From NCBI GenBank assembly GCA_951406725.2, contig OX597820.1:54560001-54624000 (forward strand): a stretch of 64,000 nucleotides of DNA, written 5' to 3'. Within the stretch, counting starts at the first letter, position 1. Each line of letters starts with the position of its first letter. The stretch comes from Octopus vulgaris. Its lineage: Eukaryota. A program made the position numbers and the translations under genes. Shown in pieces: positions 9,362-57,815 of this stretch. The notes beneath the pieces were generated by a model. That model had not been told where the DNA came from. It saw only the letters and a program-made list of their open reading frames with translations, and did not search any database.

Positions 9362-9745
9362 GAAATATGTTACGAAAAGAAAATATAAAATACACGTGGA
9401 AATGTAAGGGTAAAATATGAAAAATCAACGAAAATGCATATTGCAAATAGAAAAAGGCTATTTATGACAGGTAGTGACAAATATATACATTTAGATTGAC
9501 TGAGGTAGTAATACGAGTCATAAATGTCATTATTAAGAGATGATTATAAGATGATAATAAAGTAAGAGAACAAAACGGTATTATATATATATATATATAT
9601 AATAATGTAGGATAAAATTTTTCGAAAAAAATTCTATCAATGGCCAGCATATTAAAAAATACCTTTAAAGGTTAAATTTATAAACAATTACTAATAAATT
9701 ATAATTAAATCTCAGAATGAGATTGAAACAGTTATCGCTCGATAA

Positions 9746-10052
9746 TGTAAAGTATAGAAGCCATCTTATCATGGCTAACCACATTGGGGAGGGGTGTTAC
9801 TGTAGCTTTATAGCCCCAAGAGATCTTCGTCTCTAGCTGGCTTTAGACACAATATCTGTGTCCTTGGAGTATTTGCAAAGGGATGCACTCAGGCTTGCGA
9901 GGAAGGGATGGCCTCCCTTTGCAAATACTCCAAGGACACAGATATTGTGTCTAAAGCCAGCTAGAGACGAAGATCTCTTGGGGCTATAAAGCTACAGTAA
10001 CACCCCCTCCCCAATGTGGTTAGCCACGATAAGATGGCTTCTATACTTTACA
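9746..10052. repeat. Near-perfect 138/139-bp inverted repeat (30-nt loop) related to the neighbouring retrozyme-like unit
   Basis: Arms 9746-9883 and 9914-10052 differ by one substitution and one 1-nt indel. The right arm plus part of the loop aligns to 10868-11003. Confidence 0.93.
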
Positions 10053-10327
10053 ATACTTATAAATTGTTTATATATATATAACTTTTATAGGAAGAACGTG
10101 ACTTTGAACACTCGGCCAGAAAACCTTCCTCAGACTATATTCAAGGATAATCAGGCTGAAATGTCAACATCATCGTCACTCCTCTTTTTGTAAAAATTCC
10201 AGTTAACATGTACTCTACTAAAAAGTATAAAGTTATTCTTCAGTTTAATGTTAAATTGTTTTTATATATAACTTGACATAAAAACAAGCATTAATATATC
10301 ATATATATGCATCTCTGTATAAATACG

Positions 10328-10361
<34 letters not shown>

Positions 10362-10494
10362 TGTATGTATGTATGTATAAATACGTAGACACATATACAC
10401 ATATATGTATATACACATATATACATATATATATACATATACACATATATACTTATATATATACATATACACATATATATATATATATACATAT

Positions 10495-10567
<73 letters not shown>

Positions 10568-10573
<6 letters not shown>

Positions 10574-11016
10574 CAGCTGGAGGAGTGTGTCCTCCTGGGG
10601 CTAAAAACTACAGTAGCATCCACCCTTAGGGGTTAGCCATATTGAAATGGCAAAAATACGTCACGATGTGTTACCGCTACTGTATATAACTCACTTTGAT
10701 ATTTATCATTGTTTGATTTCACTTTTTCAATATCAGCGACAGTGGACGCTGGAAAAAGTATAAGTATTTGTGAAGGAAATCTAATTCTCGGCGACAACTA
10801 TGATTGTCACACGCTGACGAGAGGTCAATACCTCGAAACTCGAGTCCGTGTGTATCATAAGTTGAAGACGGGAAGGATGACTTCCCTTTGCAAATACTGA
10901 CAGGACACAGATAGTGTGTCTATGGCCAGCTGGAGGAGTGTGTCCTCCTGGGGCTAAAAACTACAGTAGCATCCACCCTTAGGGGTTAGACATATTGAAA
11001 TGGCAAAAATACGTCA

Positions 11017-11020
<4 letters not shown>
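10568..11020 (+). mobile_element. Retrozyme-like / non-autonomous PLE unit: 353-bp period with 100-bp terminal direct repeats, inserted in (TA)n
   Basis: 10568-10667 equals 10921-11020 with 1 mismatch; no coding capacity; internal hammerhead; (TA)n on both flanks. Confidence 0.85.
10799..10859 (+). ncRNA. Minimal type I hammerhead ribozyme (canonical core)
   Basis: Stem I cacacg(10808-13)/cgtgtg(10847-52), extended by tatgat/atcata; core CTGACGA (10814-20); stem II gaggt-caat-acctc; GAAA (10835-38); palindromic stem III ACTCGAGT; GUC cleavage triplet (cut after 10846). Confidence 0.88.
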
Positions 11021-11057
<37 letters not shown>

Positions 11058-11403
11058 CTTATATATAAATATTATATATGTATGGATATGTATATATATA
11101 TATATATCGTTTTTGAATTTGAATTGCAAGATTCTTGATGTGAAATCGTGTTTTGAAATAGATTTTGATGTATCTTGGCGGGGTCATTACGACTATACGT
11201 GTGTGTGTGTCAGCGAGTGTGTATATACATTATATATATATATATATATATGGCTAGATTACCGTATTGAATTAATTCTCCAGTGTTATAAGACAAAAAC
11301 AAAACACAAGTATTATCAACAGCTATTAATTGGCGACGGTGAAATTTGATCACACACACACACTCACATATACACGCGCGCGCGCACACATATATGCACA
11401 CGG

Positions 11404-26622: not shown

Positions 26623-26886
26623 AAATAAGAAAATGGAGAAATACATCTAAATCAAATATCAATTACCAGATAATACTCAATCACATACTTTATTAAACCA
26701 CCACATAAGAAACTATAAGGTTAAACATAAAAAAGTAGAACAAAACAGTGTACATAAAGGAGTGTACATAAAAGAGTAATGTTATACAATAAGTAGAATA
26801 TATATAAGAGAATATAAATATAAGTAAATATAAATATAAATATAGTCTATATTTATATTTATAAACTCCTAAAATTCAAAAACCTA

Positions 26887-28025
26887 TTGAACAGCATAAG
26901 CCCAAATATACAGTTCACAATGGAATACAACAAAAAGGAGCTCCCATTCTTGGATATACTAATTAAAAATATTAACCTTAAAATAGAGACAGACATTTTT
27001 TACAAAGCCACAGACGCCAAACAATACCTACTTTTTGATTCATGCCACCCAAGACACACTAAAACAAACATCCCCTTCAACCTTGCAAGAAGGATATGCA
27101 CAATAGTGTCAGAACAAAATACCAGGAACTTTAGACTGCAAGAACTCAAAAACACCCTAATTGACAGACATTACCCAGCTCAACTCATAGAGGATGGGAT
27201 CAGACGTGCAACAGAAATCAACATAGAAAATTTTTGAGAAAAGTTCAACACAACAACACACCTTCCCCGAAAATACTACCTTACATATCCACATACAACC
27301 CCAGAAACAAAGAAGCCTTCACCATCATCACCCAGAATTTACCAATACTTCATAAGGACCCCAAATTAAAGGAAATTCTAAACACACACCAAATCATTAA
27401 AAGCTACAAACAACCTAAATCACTTAAAAAGATTCTCACAAAGGCAAAATTGTTTTCTGAAATTACGGATGCAAAAGTAAAAAAATGTGGTAGACCGAAC
27501 TGTGCAACATGTCCAAACCTGCTAGAAGGATCAGAATTCCTCTTCAAAGAGGGACAGAAATTCAAGATCAAATCTAATTTTACTTGTGCCTCTGAAAACA
27601 TAATTTATGTCATAAAATGCTCGGGCTGCCACCAAAACTACGTGGGGTCCACGGGACTATCACTCAGACGTAGATGCACACTGCATCGACAACAGATTGC
27701 ATTCCCAGAATACAGAATGATACCCTTTATTGAGCACATTGAGAAATGCGCAAAGCAACTACTACCACAATTCTTAATCTTTCCATTTTACCAATGTGCT
27801 ACCGGAACACCAACACAAATTAGACTAAACAAGGAAACATTCTTCATTGAAAAATACAAGCCCAAACTTAACCATTCCAACATTCTTATACAGAGAAACT
27901 CACTCCAAAAAAAAAAGGCAAGAAATATTAAGCGATTATCTCCCTTACACCGGAAGAAATCACTTATTTCCTCCCCTTATCTGGAACTCTTCTTCACACT
28001 TCTCAACGTAAACATAACGATGTAA
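26887..28025 (+). pseudogene. PLE RT thumb + GIY-YIG endonuclease, frameshifted at ~27235
   Basis: IQFTME..LPFLDI..TDIFYK..QYL.FDSCHP; linker CGRPNCATCP; NIIYVIKCSGCHQNYVGST..LRRR..LHRQ (GIY-YIG); ends KPKLN followed by a read-through tail. Confidence 0.9.
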
Positions 28026-28063
28026 GAAATTTGAAAAGCTGAACGCGAAACCGGTCATTTCTT
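28024..28063 (+). ncRNA. Minimal type I hammerhead ribozyme, U3-A8 variant, in the PLE 3' region
   Basis: Stem I aagaaat/atttctt; core TTGAAAA; 2-bp stem II gc-tgaac-gc; GAAA; palindromic ACCGGT; GUC site (cut after 28056). Confidence 0.7.
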
Positions 28064-28215
28064 CAAAAACTATGTCATTGTATGAAAAAAATTTATAACA
28101 TTCTTCAGACATAATGACTCAAATATATATTTTTTAACCTTTTAAAACAAGCCTTCTGTAGTTTTTTCACTTTTTACTATTTTATATATATATATATATA
28201 TATATAATGTCACAC

Positions 28216-33879: not shown

Positions 33880-36714
33880 TAGCCCGAAGAGCTGGGCGGC
33901 CTCTGCAAAGCAGGATGTGATGCGCTGCGAGGCTCTTTCTGCACAGCCCTGCTTCCCGCCGTTGTTGATGGGGAATGGCTATGACATGTCGCTATTCAGG
34001 CGGACTTGTCTTCGTGAAGCTGGATTGTCATGGTTAGGAATTTTGGGGGACAGCCAAGTCGGTTTAGGGTCTGCCACAGATCTTTCCTGCTCACAGATCG
34101 TCAGATATACAAATAAAGTGGTTTGTTTTGCTCCTGGCACTTTTCTTAGAACTGCCTGAGAACGGAAACCATATCTGTTGTGCTCCTGTTGGCTCTGAAA
34201 CTACATTGGCTTTTTGGAAGATGATTTTCAGCAATGAAAGGAACAAGTCTGTTGAGGAGTAAATCTTGCTAGAACTTTTCCTACGGTGGAAAGCAGAATG
34301 ATCCCCCGGTAGTTTGAGCAGCCAAACTCTTCCCCTTTGTTTTTGTATAGTGTAATAATGACGGCATTGCAGAGATCTTGTGACAGCTTACCCTGTTGCC
34401 AGCATGCAACGAGGAGCTCATGGAGTTTAGCATGTATGACAGGAACCCCATGCTTCCATATCTCTGGTAGTATGCCATCGACTCCTGCTGCCTTTCTGCT
34501 CTTCAGCCAGCCTATGGAAACTGTGGTCTCTTCCAGGGTTGTAGGCGCTCGTTTAGTTCCACTCAGACTGGTTGCTGCTGGGTGTGGAGGATTGCATTTT
34601 CCTGAACAACTCAGTTTGCACTGAAGAGGGCCTGAAAGTATTCAGACCAGCGGTTGAGGATGGATGCTGTGTCTGTGAGAAGCGCCAAGCCATCTGAGCT
34701 GCCCAGGGGACTCCGGACTTGATGTGCTGGGCCGTAGACTGCTTTGAGAGCTTCATAGAACCCCCTGTAGTCGCCAGAGTCAGCGCACAGCTGGGTTCTC
34801 CGTGCGAGGCTGGTCCACCACTCAATCTGAACTTCTCGAAGTTTGCGCTGCAGTAAGCTGCAGGCTTGGCCAAAGGCCGCTTTCTTCTCTAGGCAGGTGG
34901 GTTGCGCCAAGTGTGCTTGGTGGACAGACCTCTTCTTCAATAATTTCTGGATCAGCACATCGTTTTCGTCAAACCAATCCTTGTCCTTTTTCTTCGTAAA
35001 CCCAAGTATTTCTGCAGTGGGCTGTAGGATAGCGGTTTTCAGTTGTTCCCATAGGATTTCTGAAGACGGGTCTGAGGGGCGATTGGATTTATCAAGTTTT
35101 GCCTGTAGGCCTGCTTGGAAGTTTACTTTCACTTCGTTTATCTGCAGATCGCTAGTTTTGATTTTCTTGTTGTTGGCCGTTCCTGTCTTTTTCGCTGATT
35201 TGGGCTTGAAGTGTGGTTTGAGTTTGCAACAGACCAGGCGATGGTTATTATGGCATTCTGCGCTAGGCATCACTCTAGTGTGCTTATGCACACTAGACTG
35301 GTCTCGTTGGCGCTCTAGAACACAGAGGTGCCAGTGTTTTGATCGGGGATACATCCAGGTTGTTTTCAGACTCTTTACTGGAAGATGGTATTGGTGATGA
35401 CGAGCTTATGTTCGGTGCGAAACTCAAGCAAGAGTCGCCCGTTGTCGTTACAGTTCCCAACCCCATGCTTTCCGAAGTCTCCTTTCCAAGTTTCTGAATC
35501 TCGGCCCACTCTGGCATTGAAATCTCCTAGGATTATGATTTTATCATCGACGGGAGTTCTCTGGAGGAGTCTGCACAGGTCTGAGTAGAACTTGTCCTTG
35601 TCTGTTGGGTTTGCTTGGAGGGTCTGAGAAGAAACGCTAAAGATCGTGACATGCTGCTTGTTTTCCAGAGTAAGACGCATGGAGATGATGCGGTCAGAGT
35701 GACCTGCTGGTAGGGTTTCCAGCATTGAAGCAAAGGAGTTTCTTATCACGAAACTGACACCTGAACGGCGTTTTTCTGATGGGGGTTTGCCTGACTAATA
35801 TAGGATGTATCCGGCGCCATGTTCTTTCAAACTGCCTTCCTCTTTGATAGCCGGATTTCACTAAAGGCTGCGATATCAATTTCTAGCCTGGACAGTTCAT
35901 GTGCAATGAGAGCCGATCGCCTAAGTAAAGAATGGTTCTGACGTCCCAGCGTGCAATCTTCAGACATTTGGCAACATTTGAAGGGTGTTTGAAGTCTTTT
36001 CTTTTTGTATTCGTGCGTATTTGACCGCTTGAAGATGCCCGATGGTCGCGGTTGGCCAACTGGGTGTGTAGGAGACGAGCTTTCTTTAGGCCACCTTCTC
36101 TAAGCCTCTTCCATGTAGAGCAAGCAGTGTTCTCCCAAGATAAGGCTGCTTGGTCGTTCGGGATGCAGCTGAGGGATATTGTCGTCTCCAAGTCAACACC
36201 ACGCGACCAATGTCCCGAACCACCTGCATGCAGGCTGGAAGTTGCGGCTTCCAATGACATCATCTACCTGTCGTTTTCGCCCCATTTCCCATCGTTATAG
36301 GGCTTGGAGAGTTGTGATCGTGGTCGTGGACGTGAACAGATCCTTCGGCCTGCGCGATGGAGTTTTAAGGTGAAGTGCAGTCTGCGCAGAACTGGCCCCC
36401 ACCTTTTACACCCGGAGTTCATCTGCCTTGGCCCAGCAAGCTGGAATAGTGACAGAGAGGTCCTCCGGTCGTAGGCTTTATATCGGAGTGACCTTCTCCT
36501 AGACAGGCTGCCGATCATGCCTAATGATCCCCAACTGCTCGGAGCAGCCTGGTTATACTGCACCAGACACCTGTAATCGTCCTCTCCTGCTAGTTTAGAT
36601 CCAGGTGGTACCACGAGGAGGTCGAAGTAGGACTTGGGGTTTGCGTCATTCTTTGGAAGTTTTAGACCAATATGGTGCTCACCCGACCAACATCTGGTGA
36701 CTATGTGGACCCCC
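33880..36714 (-). mobile_element. RTE-clade LINE: 5'UTR + APE + partial RT, 3'-truncated and decayed
   Basis: IIILGDFNARVG, GVGNCNDNGRLLLEF, HKLVITNTIF, PRSKHWH, LP.SQCSFRANRSTTDM; many frameshifts; the segment containing YADD is deleted near 33950. Confidence 0.92.
36579..36714 (-). ncRNA. HDV-like ribozyme fold (partly decayed) at the RTE 5' end
   Basis: Minus strand: P2 gtcctacttcg, P3 acc, L3 tcctcgt, P3' ggt, P1' accacct, P1.1 gg, short linker, ctag, P2' caggagaggac; the 5' P1 strand is imperfect. Confidence 0.6.
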
Positions 36715-39625: not shown

Positions 39626-39912
39626 AATAATGGTTTTTATTTTAGTATATCATAAATTATTCTACATGTTTGCACTGATATGCATGCTTTAGTTGTATAG
39701 CATGCATATATATGCAGACATTTAAAATAATTTATGTATCACTAAAATAAAAAGTATTATTATATGGTGAAAGGTGTGAAACTTCCGTCATCCTGCGAAA
39801 TATCAACTGGTGAAATAAATATATTCATCTCACATACTTCCTGATCTTTTATTATATATATATATATTTATTTATTTATATGTATGTATGCATGCATGTA
39901 CACACATACATA

Positions 39913-39978
<66 letters not shown>

Positions 39979-39991
39979 TTATATATATCAT

Positions 39992-41055
39992 ATGATTTGA
40001 TTTGATCTGGTTTCAGCTCATGAGCTGTGGTCATGCTGGGGCACCGCCATTTGGTGTTGCTGCATAATTTTACTTCACTCATTCTTTTTAGAAATTGACG
40101 TTTGGTGCATGACGCTGCCCTCGTCTGCACTTCCTGCTGTAAAGTTGATTCATCTGGGACACTTAATATTAATAGGTCTAGTTTCGTTTTGAAGACACTT
40201 ACATCCACCCCACATAGGTCTCTCAGGTCCTTCGGGAGGATATTGAAAAGCTGTGAGCCTTTAAAATCCAAGCTATTGCAATATCTTGTCCAATATCTTG
40301 ATGGCAAACTTTGAGTCTTTGGCACTATCGAGTGGCACCCTGTTCTAGCATTAGTGTAATTCTCGATGCCAAAGTTTGGAACAAGTCCCTCTAGAATCTT
40401 CCAGATGTATATTATAGCATATCTTTCCCGCCTACGCTCTAGGGAATAGAATCTCAATCTCTTGGGTCTTTCCCAGTAGCTTGTATACAGCATAAAGGTA
40501 ATCTTCTTCATGTGGCTTCGTTGGATTGCTTCAAGTTCTGCAATTAATTTTACACTGGTTGGTGACCATAGCTGGGAGCAATAGTTAAAGCGGCTTAGGA
40601 CAAATGATCATAGTTTCCTGATCTCTCGTTCTAAATGTTCTAAGAATCCAACCGGTCAGCCGCCTACATTTCACTGCCAAATTAGCGACATGCATATGGA
40701 AGGATGCATCATTACTCATGTAAATGCCCAGTTATCGCACTAACTGTGTCTCTGAGATTGCAATCCCTCCAGGTCCAGTGCATTTAATTGGTGTTGCGTT
40801 TAGTTTTGCATGCTGAAACTTTTCAACATTAAACTGCATGTTATTCTTCTCACTTTGTATATTTCATCCAACCCACATTGCAGGTGCAACTCACATAGCA
40901 GGGTTCTGTATCACCTGTGAGACTTTTGCATCATCTGCATAACTTGTGATCGTGGCTCTCTGTGTGGCTGAGGGCCATTATGAACAGTAGTGGTCCCAAA
41001 ACAGTGCCTTGCGGAACACCGATCACTATTTGTGCGTCATTGGAGGTGGCCCCAT
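39992..41055 (-). mobile_element. CR1-group LINE (family 1) RT to 3' end
   Basis: GVPQGTVLGPLLFI, SYADDAK, YSLERRRERYAIIYIWKILEG; stem-loop tail plus (ATCAA)n. Confidence 0.9.
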
Positions 41056-43145: not shown

Positions 43146-43797
43146 TGATTGATTGATTGATTCTAGTTTCAGCTTATGAGCTGTGGCCATGCTGGGGCAC
43201 CGCCATTTGGTGTTGCTACTTGGTTTCACTTCACGAAAGCTTTCTAGCAACTGCCATTTGGTGCATGAGAGAGTTCGATGCAGCTGCCCTCATCTGCCCC
43301 TCCTGCCGTGAAGTTGGTTCATCTGGGACACCTGACAGGAAGAGATCCAGCTTCATTTTAAAGACATCTGCATCCACCCCATGCAGGTCTCTCAGGTTCT
43401 TCGGGAGGATATTGAAGAGCTGTGGGCCTCGGAAGCCCAGGCTATCACAGAATCTTGTCCTACATCTTGATGGCAAGTTTGGAGTCCTAGACACCACGCA
43501 GTGGCGCCCAGTTCTGGCATTTGCGTAACTCTCGATGCCAAAGTTCAAGACACGTCCCTCCAGGATCTTCCAGATGTATATTATGGCATATCTTTCCCGC
43601 CTACGCTCCAGGGAATATAGTTTTAATCTCTTGAGTCTTTCCCAGTAGCTTACATTCTGGATAGAGGCTATCTTCTTCGTGTAGCTACGTTGGATCGCCT
43701 CGAGCTCTGTGATCAACTTGACACTGGATGGTGACCATAACTGAGAGCAGTAGTCAAAGTGGCTTAGGACAAGTGTCCTCCAGAGGACCATCATGGT
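43146..43797 (-). mobile_element. CR1-group LINE (family 1) 3' fragment, open reading frame retained
   Basis: LVLSHFDYCSQLWSP..LEAIQRSYTKKI..YWERLKRLKLYSLERRRERY; stem-loop tail and (AATC)n. Confidence 0.92.
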
Positions 43798-43817
43798 ATA
43801 TATATATATATATATAT

Positions 43818-43924
<107 letters not shown>

Positions 43925-44284
43925 TAGTTGAGGTGTATATCGTTAAGAACGAATAAGAGTACAAAACAGAGCTTGTTCACCTTTAGATTAAAAAGCTGCC
44001 GAATTGTACTCCATCTTACTTTTGACTCTATTCTTTCATTCATATATATATTATCCGAAATGTATAGTATAAAATATCCATCGCGGCTGATCTTATAGGT
44101 GCGAGCCCAATGGTCACTCACTGATTTGAATTAGTGTACAGATTTTATATTATAAGAAAAAGGACACCTTGGGGAACATCCAGAATGATTGCCGCCCTAC
44201 ATACGCTGCTATTTCTTAACCAGCTTTTTCCGGGTGCCCTAAATAATTTCCCAAAATTCTGACTACCTCTTTACGCGCGTGCAT

Positions 44285-55800: not shown

Positions 55801-57380
55801 ATCGGAATGAAATTTCAATAGTTCGTATGTGCAGAAACGTTAGCAAGCCGGGCGAAATGCTTAGCGATATTTGGTCTGTCGTTACGTTCTAAGTTCAAAT
55901 TCCATCGAAGTTGATTTTGCCTTTCATCCTTTTCGGGTCGATAAATTAAGTATCAGTTGCGTACTAGGGTCGGTCTAATCTACTGGCCCCCTCCACAAAA
56001 AATTCGGGCCTTGTACCTACAGTAGAAAAGAATATATTTGTATATAGTGAAAGTGTATACCCCTCCCGATAAAAAGTGGAAGAAGCTAGCCATTGTAAAT
56101 AGACTAGTAGCTGGTCGTCAAGAGAGTTGAGAGTTCTAGTCGGTGTCTTGTGGAGCTATCACCGATAATAAGACAGAAGTTAGTGCATTACTATTCCGAT
56201 ACAAAGAGATACAACGGTATCCGATGGCTAGTAACTATTGTGGCTACAAGCGTATTAAAGTACAGCGGCAGTCACACATCACACCAATTAGAGAAACTCA
56301 CTTTACAACAGAGGCGACGAAGAAAAACACATTTACGCGGAGTAAACTGATTTACGGGGAAAATTAAATAACTCGACAAAAAAAGAAACAAAAGTCTTGT
56401 TGTGCAAACTTACAAAAATCGTAAAATATGGAAGACTTGTTAGTTAACTAGGGTAGTCGAGTTGCAAAAACAACAAAGCAAGGAACAACGAGAACAACAA
56501 GGATTGCAGCAGCAAATTTTACAATTAATGAAGTTGATAACCAAACCAGAGAATACATTTTCGCCTGACTGTACTGTAAATTCAGTTACCGAATTCAAAT
56601 ATGACTCCTCCTCAAGAAGGAGGAACTTTCGAGGCTTAGTTTCGAAGATTTGAACAAGTTTTTGAAAAAGAATGTCATGATTGGACGGCCGAAATGAAAT
56701 CGCGTCTAGTTTACAGAAAACTAACGACAGCAGAGCATGAGCAGTCTAGTAACTTCATATTGCCAAAAAAAAAAAAAAAAAGCATCCGACATAAATTTCA
56801 CCGACACAGTTGACATTTTGTGCAAAATGTATAGTGAAGAGAGCTCACTATTTAATACTAGATGGAAATATTTAAACATAGAAAAGAGCGAAGATGAAGG
56901 CTTCACTACTTATACAGGCAGAGTCAACAAAGAATGTGAGAGATTTAGGCTGGGTATGCTTACTACAGATTCTTTCAAGTGTTTGATTTTCGTACAAGGG
57001 TTGACAGAAAAAAAGGGATGCAGAAATTCGAACGAAAATTCTAGCAAAACTAGAAATGGACCAGGATTTGACAATGCAGAAACTGTCGGAAGAGTGTGAT
57101 GTGATATTAAAATTACGGTATGACAAGGAAGAAATTCAACGGAAAGAATCTTTTTCACATAAGACAAGGGCAAAAAATTCGGAAGACAAATAAAGTGTTG
57201 AAGGAAAAACTGAAAAAAAATATCGGGATGTAGACCCATGTATGGCATATGGTGGGATGCACCTGAAAAAAGATTGTCCGTATAAAAAAGTGTTTTCGCT
57301 GCGGGTTTACATGACATATAAAATCGCACTACAAAACTATAATGATAGGAAAATGAAACAAACAAGAAAAAATAAATAGT

Positions 57381-57815
57381 TTGTCAGCAGGAAAAGTTGT
57401 GACTACAACAAACAGAAAATTCGTGAATGTGAAAATTGAAACCACTAGTGTCGGAATGCAATTAGACACGGGAAGTGACATCACAATCATTAATGAGAAA
57501 ACATGTGAACAAATGGGTAAACCAAAATTATGTAGTCCGAATAAAATAGTGTATCGTTTTAAGAGAAGAAATTTATATTTCACGGCTGAACGCGTTTGTA
57601 ATATAATGTTCAAAGGTCAAACCAAAAAAGTGAATGCTTATGTGTTGAAAAAATACATGAATTTATTTGACACCGAATGTATGGAGAAATTTAATTTATG
57701 GGATACACCTTTAAGCGTTTTGTACAATAACGTAAACGGGGCAGTTGAACGAGGTCGATGTGAACTGAGACAAAAAATAAAAGAAACTTTCCCAAAAGTT
57801 TTTCGGAAGTTTTAG
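57381..57815 (+). pseudogene. Retropepsin-like aspartic protease of the Gypsy element
   Basis: MQLDTGSDITIINE motif. Confidence 0.88.

Follow-up and report, generated by a model that had tools for sequence, protein, structure and literature searches.

A young retrozyme family of Octopus vulgaris with Penelope-type insertion ends and a predicted circular RNA template

Non-LTR retrozymes have been described from coral and mussel, with units of 350-390 nt, and from axolotl, with units of 330/350 nt, and the accessible part of that account proposes Penelope-like elements (PLEs) as their mobilisers (PMC7229834). In vertebrates, retrozymes have been presented as non-autonomous PLE derivatives on the evidence of co-occurrence and pseudo-LTR homology (bioRxiv 10.64898/2026.07.22.740005). 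PLE insertions, as portrayed in the available portions of two reports, are partial tandems that carry an inverted 5' arm, have a tail at a single end and sit in AT/TA targets (10.1101/2021.04.23.441226; PMC3846280). A PLE protein has been shown to cleave either strand of AT-rich DNA and to extend both, its reverse transcriptase (RT) starting at two internal RNA sites, which define the tail (PMC11167929); more-than-unit copying of circles has also been proposed for PLEs (PMC4209133).

Here we analyse a retrozyme copy, and the family A to which it belongs, starting from a 64,000-nt window of Octopus vulgaris DNA (contig OX597820.1, positions 54,560,001 to 54,624,000; coordinates below are those of the window). 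A preliminary description of this window had suggested a non-LTR retrozyme family with tandem copies, and this assignment held, the tandem units being non-coding, 353 nt long and equipped with a type I hammerhead. It had also suggested an undescribed system, which must be withdrawn, since the class was defined in PMC7229834 and a PLE origin argued in bioRxiv 10.64898/2026.07.22.740005. Family A is a non-LTR retrozyme in all of its sequence-level features, with self-cleavage and the RNA circle as predictions.

As far as the available part of PMC7229834 describes them, animal non-LTR retrozymes resemble family A in their short non-coding tandem unit, a type I hammerhead with a 2-bp helix III and a palindromic tetraloop, a highly self-paired predicted circle and co-existing PLEs; the GC content of the family A unit is 42% (the retrozyme criterion is <45%). 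Family A differs from them in that its sequence is family-specific, its copies are mostly dispersed insertions of 1-6 units and its circles are predicted, and its insertion-end anatomy has been read, whereas that part of the source gives none. Vertebrate retrozymes share with it the PLE link and a mixture of monomers, dimers and multimers (bioRxiv 10.64898/2026.07.22.740005), but family A has no homology to five PLE families and its insertion ends follow the PLE tail rule. EN+ PLEs (PAc/Poseidon, PMC11167929; Neptune and Naiad, 10.1101/2021.04.23.441226; Adineta Penelope, PMC3846280), as covered by the portions of these sources at hand, are alike in partial tandems, 5' truncation, an inverted 5' arm, a tail at one end, AT/TA targets and a hammerhead in the repeat, while family A differs in having no ORF, a tail of 43-46 nt rather than 30-40 and a canonical instead of a minimal hammerhead. 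A literature search returned no paper on cephalopod retrozymes (the supplements of PMC7229834 and bioRxiv 10.64898/2026.07.22.740005 may list such families) and, among main texts, none that uses retrozyme insertions to deduce the PLE tail rule together with a monomer bottleneck.

The window copy and its hammerhead

The family A insertion in the window (locus L005) spans 10571..11020 on the + strand as a single arm of 1.27 tandem units, 5'-truncated and ending at the short one of two fixed 3' sites. The 100-bp terminal redundancy with one mismatch and the 353-nt monomer reported earlier were recovered as the same direct repeat (10568-10667 and 10921-11020, 99% identity, spacing 353). Its first 3 nt, TAT at 10568-10570, are common to the element and the TA target, so that the insertion proper is about 450 nt, or 1.27 units. 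The single mismatch, at 10990, is a private change of the window copy, with the other base present in 8/8 public runs examined. The (TA)n setting was likewise borne out by TA-rich target arrays on both sides, at 10389..10570 and 11019..11107 (neither assigned a strand). The left repeat is a 5'-truncated upstream unit (10571..10667, +) that meets the target through the shared TAT, followed by one complete 353-nt unit (10668..11020, +), and the left junction recurs identically at an independent locus (L014). Read as a circle, the unit has a longest stop-free stretch of 66 codons and is therefore taken as non-coding. The predicted circular fold reaches -115.8 kcal/mol, compared with -82.2 +/- 5.1 for 60 dinucleotide shuffles (z about -6.6), and two-sided changes occur at 22/92 consensus pairs (pair counts from alignment A2, leaving out row L183, which was in the wrong orientation).

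The type I hammerhead occupies 10799..10859 (+), with a predicted cut at 10846/10847, and is supported by stem reading, Rfam, cofolding and covariation. It runs from tatgat (10799-10804) and cacacg (10808-13) through CUGACGA (10814-20), stem II (10821-34) and GAAA (10835-38) to the palindromic ACUCGAGU (10838-45) and GUC (10844-46), and continues after the predicted cut, before 10847, with cgtgtg (10847-52) and atcata (10854-59), so that each element itemised in the preliminary description lies where it had been placed. The Infernal comparison suggested there gave no Rfam match at gathering score in the window, with RF00163 (Hammerhead_1) at 10808-10852 scoring just below the cut-off of 34 (32.2 bits, E 3.1e-6). 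The label "canonical minimal hammerhead" survives in its first half only. The motif is a canonical type I hammerhead, and the features of the minimal PLE hammerhead, which has no helix III loop, a long helix II and an extra base before stem II (PMC4209133), are absent from it: helix III is 2 bp with a tetraloop, stem II is 5 bp and the extra base is missing.

In a two-copy cofold, two hammerheads are predicted to pair through the helix III palindrome ACUCGAGU, as the earlier suggestion of dimer action would have it. The 33-nt hammerhead core has 439 exact matches in the genome and its reversed control 0, which argues that the hammerhead is not a chance occurrence. Across 8 sister-family sequences 90.7% of pair cells are paired, and 7/19 pairs carry two-sided changes, a count reached by 0/500 shuffles in a test where the sequences are related and the structure was taken from family A. 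At least two whole hammerheads lie in one arm at 30/76 loci, with up to 6 units in tandem. The window copy carries one hammerhead only, so no unit-length RNA would be released from that copy itself, and its earlier characterisation as an intact unit does not extend to a working source.

Insertion ends and the search for a Penelope-like mobiliser

A genome search recovered units of 99-100% identity, often in tandem. We assembled 76 distinct loci, of which 24 came from the best full-length matches and 52 were drawn from the 439 core matches, using the first 100 of these. Loci were picked for full length or an intact core, with short copies under-sampled; L003, L013, L010, L026, L027 and L029 were left out as same insertions or duplicates, as was L055, a segmental duplicate of L053. 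Divergence among units within a locus is 0.34%, indicating a young family.

The outer 3' ends of these loci (n=116) fall at two fixed sites in 109 cases, 66 at unit positions 94-98 and 43 at 138-145, and 104 of the 116 run into TA/AT-only sequence. The short site (unit 94-97; 11017..11020, +) lies at the loop or 3' edge of a predicted hairpin and is the putative first RT start; the long site (unit 140-143; 10710..10713, +), which adds the 43-46-nt tail, is internal in the window copy and would be the second start. TA loose ends at 11017, 10710 and 10713 in a deep public run agree with these positions. The 5' ends are scattered, with a departure from uniformity (p 0.003) to which 9 ends at position 1, partly an alignment-border artefact, contribute in a set of selected loci. 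Head-to-head two-armed insertions make up 40/76 loci and combine a short with a long end in 36/40 and two alike ends in 0/40; the pairing of short with long would arise if each break end is primed from one site. Single-arm loci have the short end in 28/36 cases, the long end in 5/36 and an end elsewhere in 3/36. The inner joints of two-armed loci show overlaps (25/40, mostly of 1-8 shared bases), filler (12/40) or blunt joining (3/40).

The fixed 3' ends, the tail carried by one arm, the truncated 5' ends, the head-to-head inversion and the TA target are PLE-type anatomy, and the PLE-type mobilisation proposed earlier fits these tail and inversion traits. Of the tandem and differently permuted copies that had been anticipated, the tandem ones exist and the ends are fixed rather than freely permuted. 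A randomly permuted layout is ruled out by the two fixed 3' sites, and the 100-nt repeat is instead explained by the 5'-truncated upstream unit.

No parent PLE emerged from a search that was not exhaustive: the five PLE families compared share no sequence with family A or with its sister families B and C; among 76 family-A, 20 family-B and 29 family-C loci there is none in which the unit runs on into a co-oriented PLE ORF; and an RT + GIY-YIG ORF between repeats, the mark of an autonomous PLE, is absent in the loci inspected. The preliminary description had weighed the case that all homologs are PLE termini with fixed ends; the ends are indeed fixed, but no PLE ORF adjoins the unit in the loci inspected. 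Candidate links to a parent were rejected when a loose end traced back to an old decayed copy, when widely spaced hammerhead pairs (L089, L174, L175) turned out to be local duplications, and when family A or C sequence adjacent to PLE 3' ends (L006, L024, L074, L109, L120) proved to reflect shared TA arrays and not fusion.

The genome contains several TA-targeting PLE families with a Neptune/Nematis-type Cys linker and two 3' ends. A young PLE family (L137-L143) has a minimal hammerhead of U3-A8 type, a 3' region with trinucleotide repeats and two 3' ends that lie about 33 nt from each other; one of its copies retains an open 784-aa RT + GIY-YIG frame. At L001 (1376-1383), a family-A arm and a 5'-truncated copy of this young PLE stand head to head, joined by a 7-nt filler resembling the unit start; this is a single hint at a helper, found at 1/76 loci, which could stem from a later deletion and names no helper. 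The window itself contains a Neptune/Nematis-type PLE with RT thumb and GIY-YIG (26861..28206, +), truncated before the RT core and frameshifted, with a different, minimal hammerhead-like motif of its own read by eye near 28031-28056. Proposed earlier as a coding helper type, this 5'-truncated element shares no sequence with the retrozyme, is no parent and would at most exemplify the helper type.

Genome-wide, the conserved motif of the superfamily has 5,799 matches and the hammerhead pattern 869. The two-end anatomy of A recurs in sister families B, which has a 357-nt unit, a U3 core and a GUU site, and C, which has a U3 core and a unit of about 355 nt. The window includes a head-to-head two-armed insertion of the 357-nt family B unit (9701..10055, no strand assigned), its arms ending long and short, that is truncated before its hammerhead. 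Other features of the window are a Mariner-type transposase fragment (PF01359; 41977-42735, -), a weak retroviral-type aspartyl protease fragment (57357-57815, +) and LINE-like fragments identified by eye, without a Pfam match, on the - strand (34611-35405, 39876-40607 and 43231-44130).

A promoter-like motif and a LINE parasite of the unit

A snRNA-promoter-like (PSE-like) motif, located with a matrix from U2 loci, lies at 10729..10742 (+) and is weak in family A. The sequence AT[CT]AGT is found 57-61 nt upstream of the start in 18/20 U2 loci of the genome, and in families A, B and C alike the U2-derived matrix scores highest at the homologous place. Compared with shuffles, this match is significant for B (15/1000) and C (2/1000) and not for family A alone, where 565/1000 shuffles match its score somewhere in the unit. 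The motif would place the first transcribed base near 10789-10793, about 55 nt upstream of the cut. It is followed by two whole hammerheads at 24/76 loci, which could be source copies and do not include the window copy. An octamer-like promoter element was considered and rejected, being found upstream in only 1/20 U2 loci. Two of the 20 U2 genes (L247, L254) have a LINE-like 3' end in the promoter's place directly upstream. Newt satellite 2 is a precedent for a retrozyme snRNA promoter. Our literature search found no paper on retrozyme snRNA promoters.

In other copies, the unit serves as the target of an L1/Tx1-like LINE with its 3' junction before 10788 and a duplication of about 20 nt (10788..10807, +); this site is empty in the window copy. 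The LINE, discovered through a loose end in a public run, is 5.2 kb long (L199-L206, L207-L231), is co-oriented with the unit and has an ORF1 with a CCHC knuckle and an ORF2 with endonuclease and RT. Its 3' end lies between unit positions 217 and 218 (window 10787 and 10788) in 8/8 full-length copies and in 19/20 same-family copies (25 pattern matches in all), and its 5' joint at 237 in 7/8. Two 5'-truncated copies within the retrozyme (L216, L226) show that the LINE inserts by itself. One LINE-retrozyme composite (L232, G000:C7:109534000-109542000) has LINE sequence in both arms, which end at 140 and 97, and L235 and L239 are further composites re-mobilised with PLE-type ends; such ends on composites show that retrozyme signals can move kilobases of cargo. 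The parasite, as distinct from the retrozyme, is like the Tx1-clade LINEs with specific targets (Tx1L in Tx1D, Keno in U2, Tx1-Mar) in the available part of PMC4494074: it has APE and RT and uses a single base of a different repeat as its insertion site, its clade being putative. The literature search yielded nothing on LINEs targeting retrozymes.

Template, proposed cycle and competing explanations

Comparison of units within loci bears on the template from which they were copied. Seven non-CpG subfamily substitutions extend to every unit in 64/65 multi-unit cases and mixed in 1/65, while 14 locus-private substitutions fill all units of their locus (10 loci; up to 5/5 and 6/6), 8 of the 14 across both arms (5 loci). 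Variants that fill all units imply that new variants pass a one-unit bottleneck. Other private substitutions affect a single unit (124) or a subset of units (5), and all four two-site combinations of subfamily variants are present, which indicates that template switching, recurrent change or conversion also act. The ribozyme cut site is crossed 157 times with 0 indels, and 5' ends near the cut number 3/116, with 3.6 expected; among the TA-joined 5' ends at about 256-286 (n=13), 0 start at 277, and for one, which lies in a GT run, 278 is a possible start. These seamless crossings, and the lack of 5'-end clustering at the cut, disfavour a hammerhead-cut linear monomer as the main template. We favour a circular monomer, predicted at 353 nt, as the likely template, as the preliminary description had supposed: a closed circle would explain all of the bottleneck and cut-site data, and linear multimers with local homogenisation only part.

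The stretch is present in 20 public runs from 10 studies, none recorded as RNA and 14 only guessed to be RNA. Near-identical sequence also occurs in runs under seven organism codes, which need not be different species. A closed 383-nt contig (353 + 30) from two of the guessed-RNA runs was rejected as evidence of a circle because an identical graph results from tandem DNA, and the circle-type joint is present at full depth in a larger run of unspecified type as well.

Taken together, we regard the window copy as probably a young, 5'-truncated retrozyme daughter, likely copied in trans by a PLE RT-endonuclease from the predicted 353-nt RNA circle. In the cycle we envisage, an internal snRNA-type promoter in a multi-unit copy would start a transcript about 55 nt before a hammerhead, two successive hammerheads, acting as a dimer via the ACUCGAGU palindrome, are predicted to excise one unit, and a host ligase, as in the known class, would close it. 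A PLE protein would then nick (TA)n, with cDNA beginning at unit 94-97 and/or 140-143, a pattern read directly from the insertions. The cDNA may round the circle 0.3 to 6 times before a random stop, and both DNA ends would be extended, one per start, until the cDNAs are joined head to head, mostly via 1-8 shared bases, as the observed joints have it. The window copy would represent one arm only, extended for 450 nt from the short start. Two published results count against the circle step: hammerhead cleavage is dispensable for PLE insertion in vitro, where unprocessed RNA is the main template (PMC11167929), and 8/9 Xenopus dimers did not cleave (Li et al. preprint, bioRxiv 10.64898/2026.07.22.740005). 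The full scheme strikes us as evenly balanced between right and wrong: transcription from a snRNA-type promoter, a hammerhead-cut 353-nt circle, a non-kin PLE that, using two sites of the same circle, primes synthesis at either end of a TA break and rolls round the circle to leave two-armed multimers whose units all carry the circle's mutations, and the same sites moving 5-kb cargo that includes a promoter-parasitising LINE.

The same element and PLE helper could instead use the uncleaved linear multimer transcript of tandem sources, with no circle needed, unit homogeneity resulting from young age, local duplication and gene conversion, and the hammerhead kept for another step. The in vitro dominance of unprocessed RNA (PMC11167929) speaks for this, as does the proposed local amplification of solo termini (Li et al. 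preprint, bioRxiv 10.64898/2026.07.22.740005); seamless cut-site crossings fit it equally, and the LINE-bearing composites of >5 kb, moved with the same ends, show that long, possibly linear templates work. A linear multimer, however, cannot spread a new mutation to all units, as the 14 private variants have done, in both inverted arms at 5 loci; subfamily variants are mixed in only 1/65 cases; and variants found in 2-3 loci do not look like inherited unit-specific marks, apart from scattered single-unit recurrences (register by inspection). We consider this explanation unlikely.

The unit might be the pseudo-LTR of an autonomous PLE missed by our non-exhaustive search, its copies being truncated PLE ends, as could be argued from an ATG situated 20 nt upstream of the short end (in PLEs, the pseudo-LTR takes in the first ORF codons, according to the available part of PMC3846280) and from the 21/57 Xenopus retrozyme families that match PLE ends (bioRxiv 10.64898/2026.07.22.740005). 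Yet the family-A, -B and -C loci are devoid of a co-oriented PLE ORF running on from the unit, units abut directly, as many as 6 times, the short reading that follows the ATG lacks conservation among families (by eye) and the PLEs seen carry different, minimal hammerheads, which together make a pseudo-LTR very improbable. Least probable of all is a DNA-level satellite, spread by unequal exchange or DNA circles, or mobilisation by an ordinary LINE, with the hammerhead as a passenger. Tandem arrays do exist and an L1/Tx1-like LINE is physically linked to the family, but fixed 3' ends with scattered 5' ends, short-plus-long arms and TA targeting are foreign to satellites or L1, and these end statistics largely exclude both; moreover, LINE insertions into the unit have a duplication and 5' truncations of their own (L216, L226), and the hammerhead stems covary.

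The retrozyme class is known, and in the literature examined the copying of animal retrozymes has so far been proposed rather than shown. As a young family, family A yields exact predictions: RT starts at 97 and 140-143, both arms from one template and a scar-free cut site. If the full scheme set out above, with its evenly balanced odds, is true, these insertions would amount to genomic proof of circular RNA templates for PLE enzymes, with recognition by structure and not by sequence.
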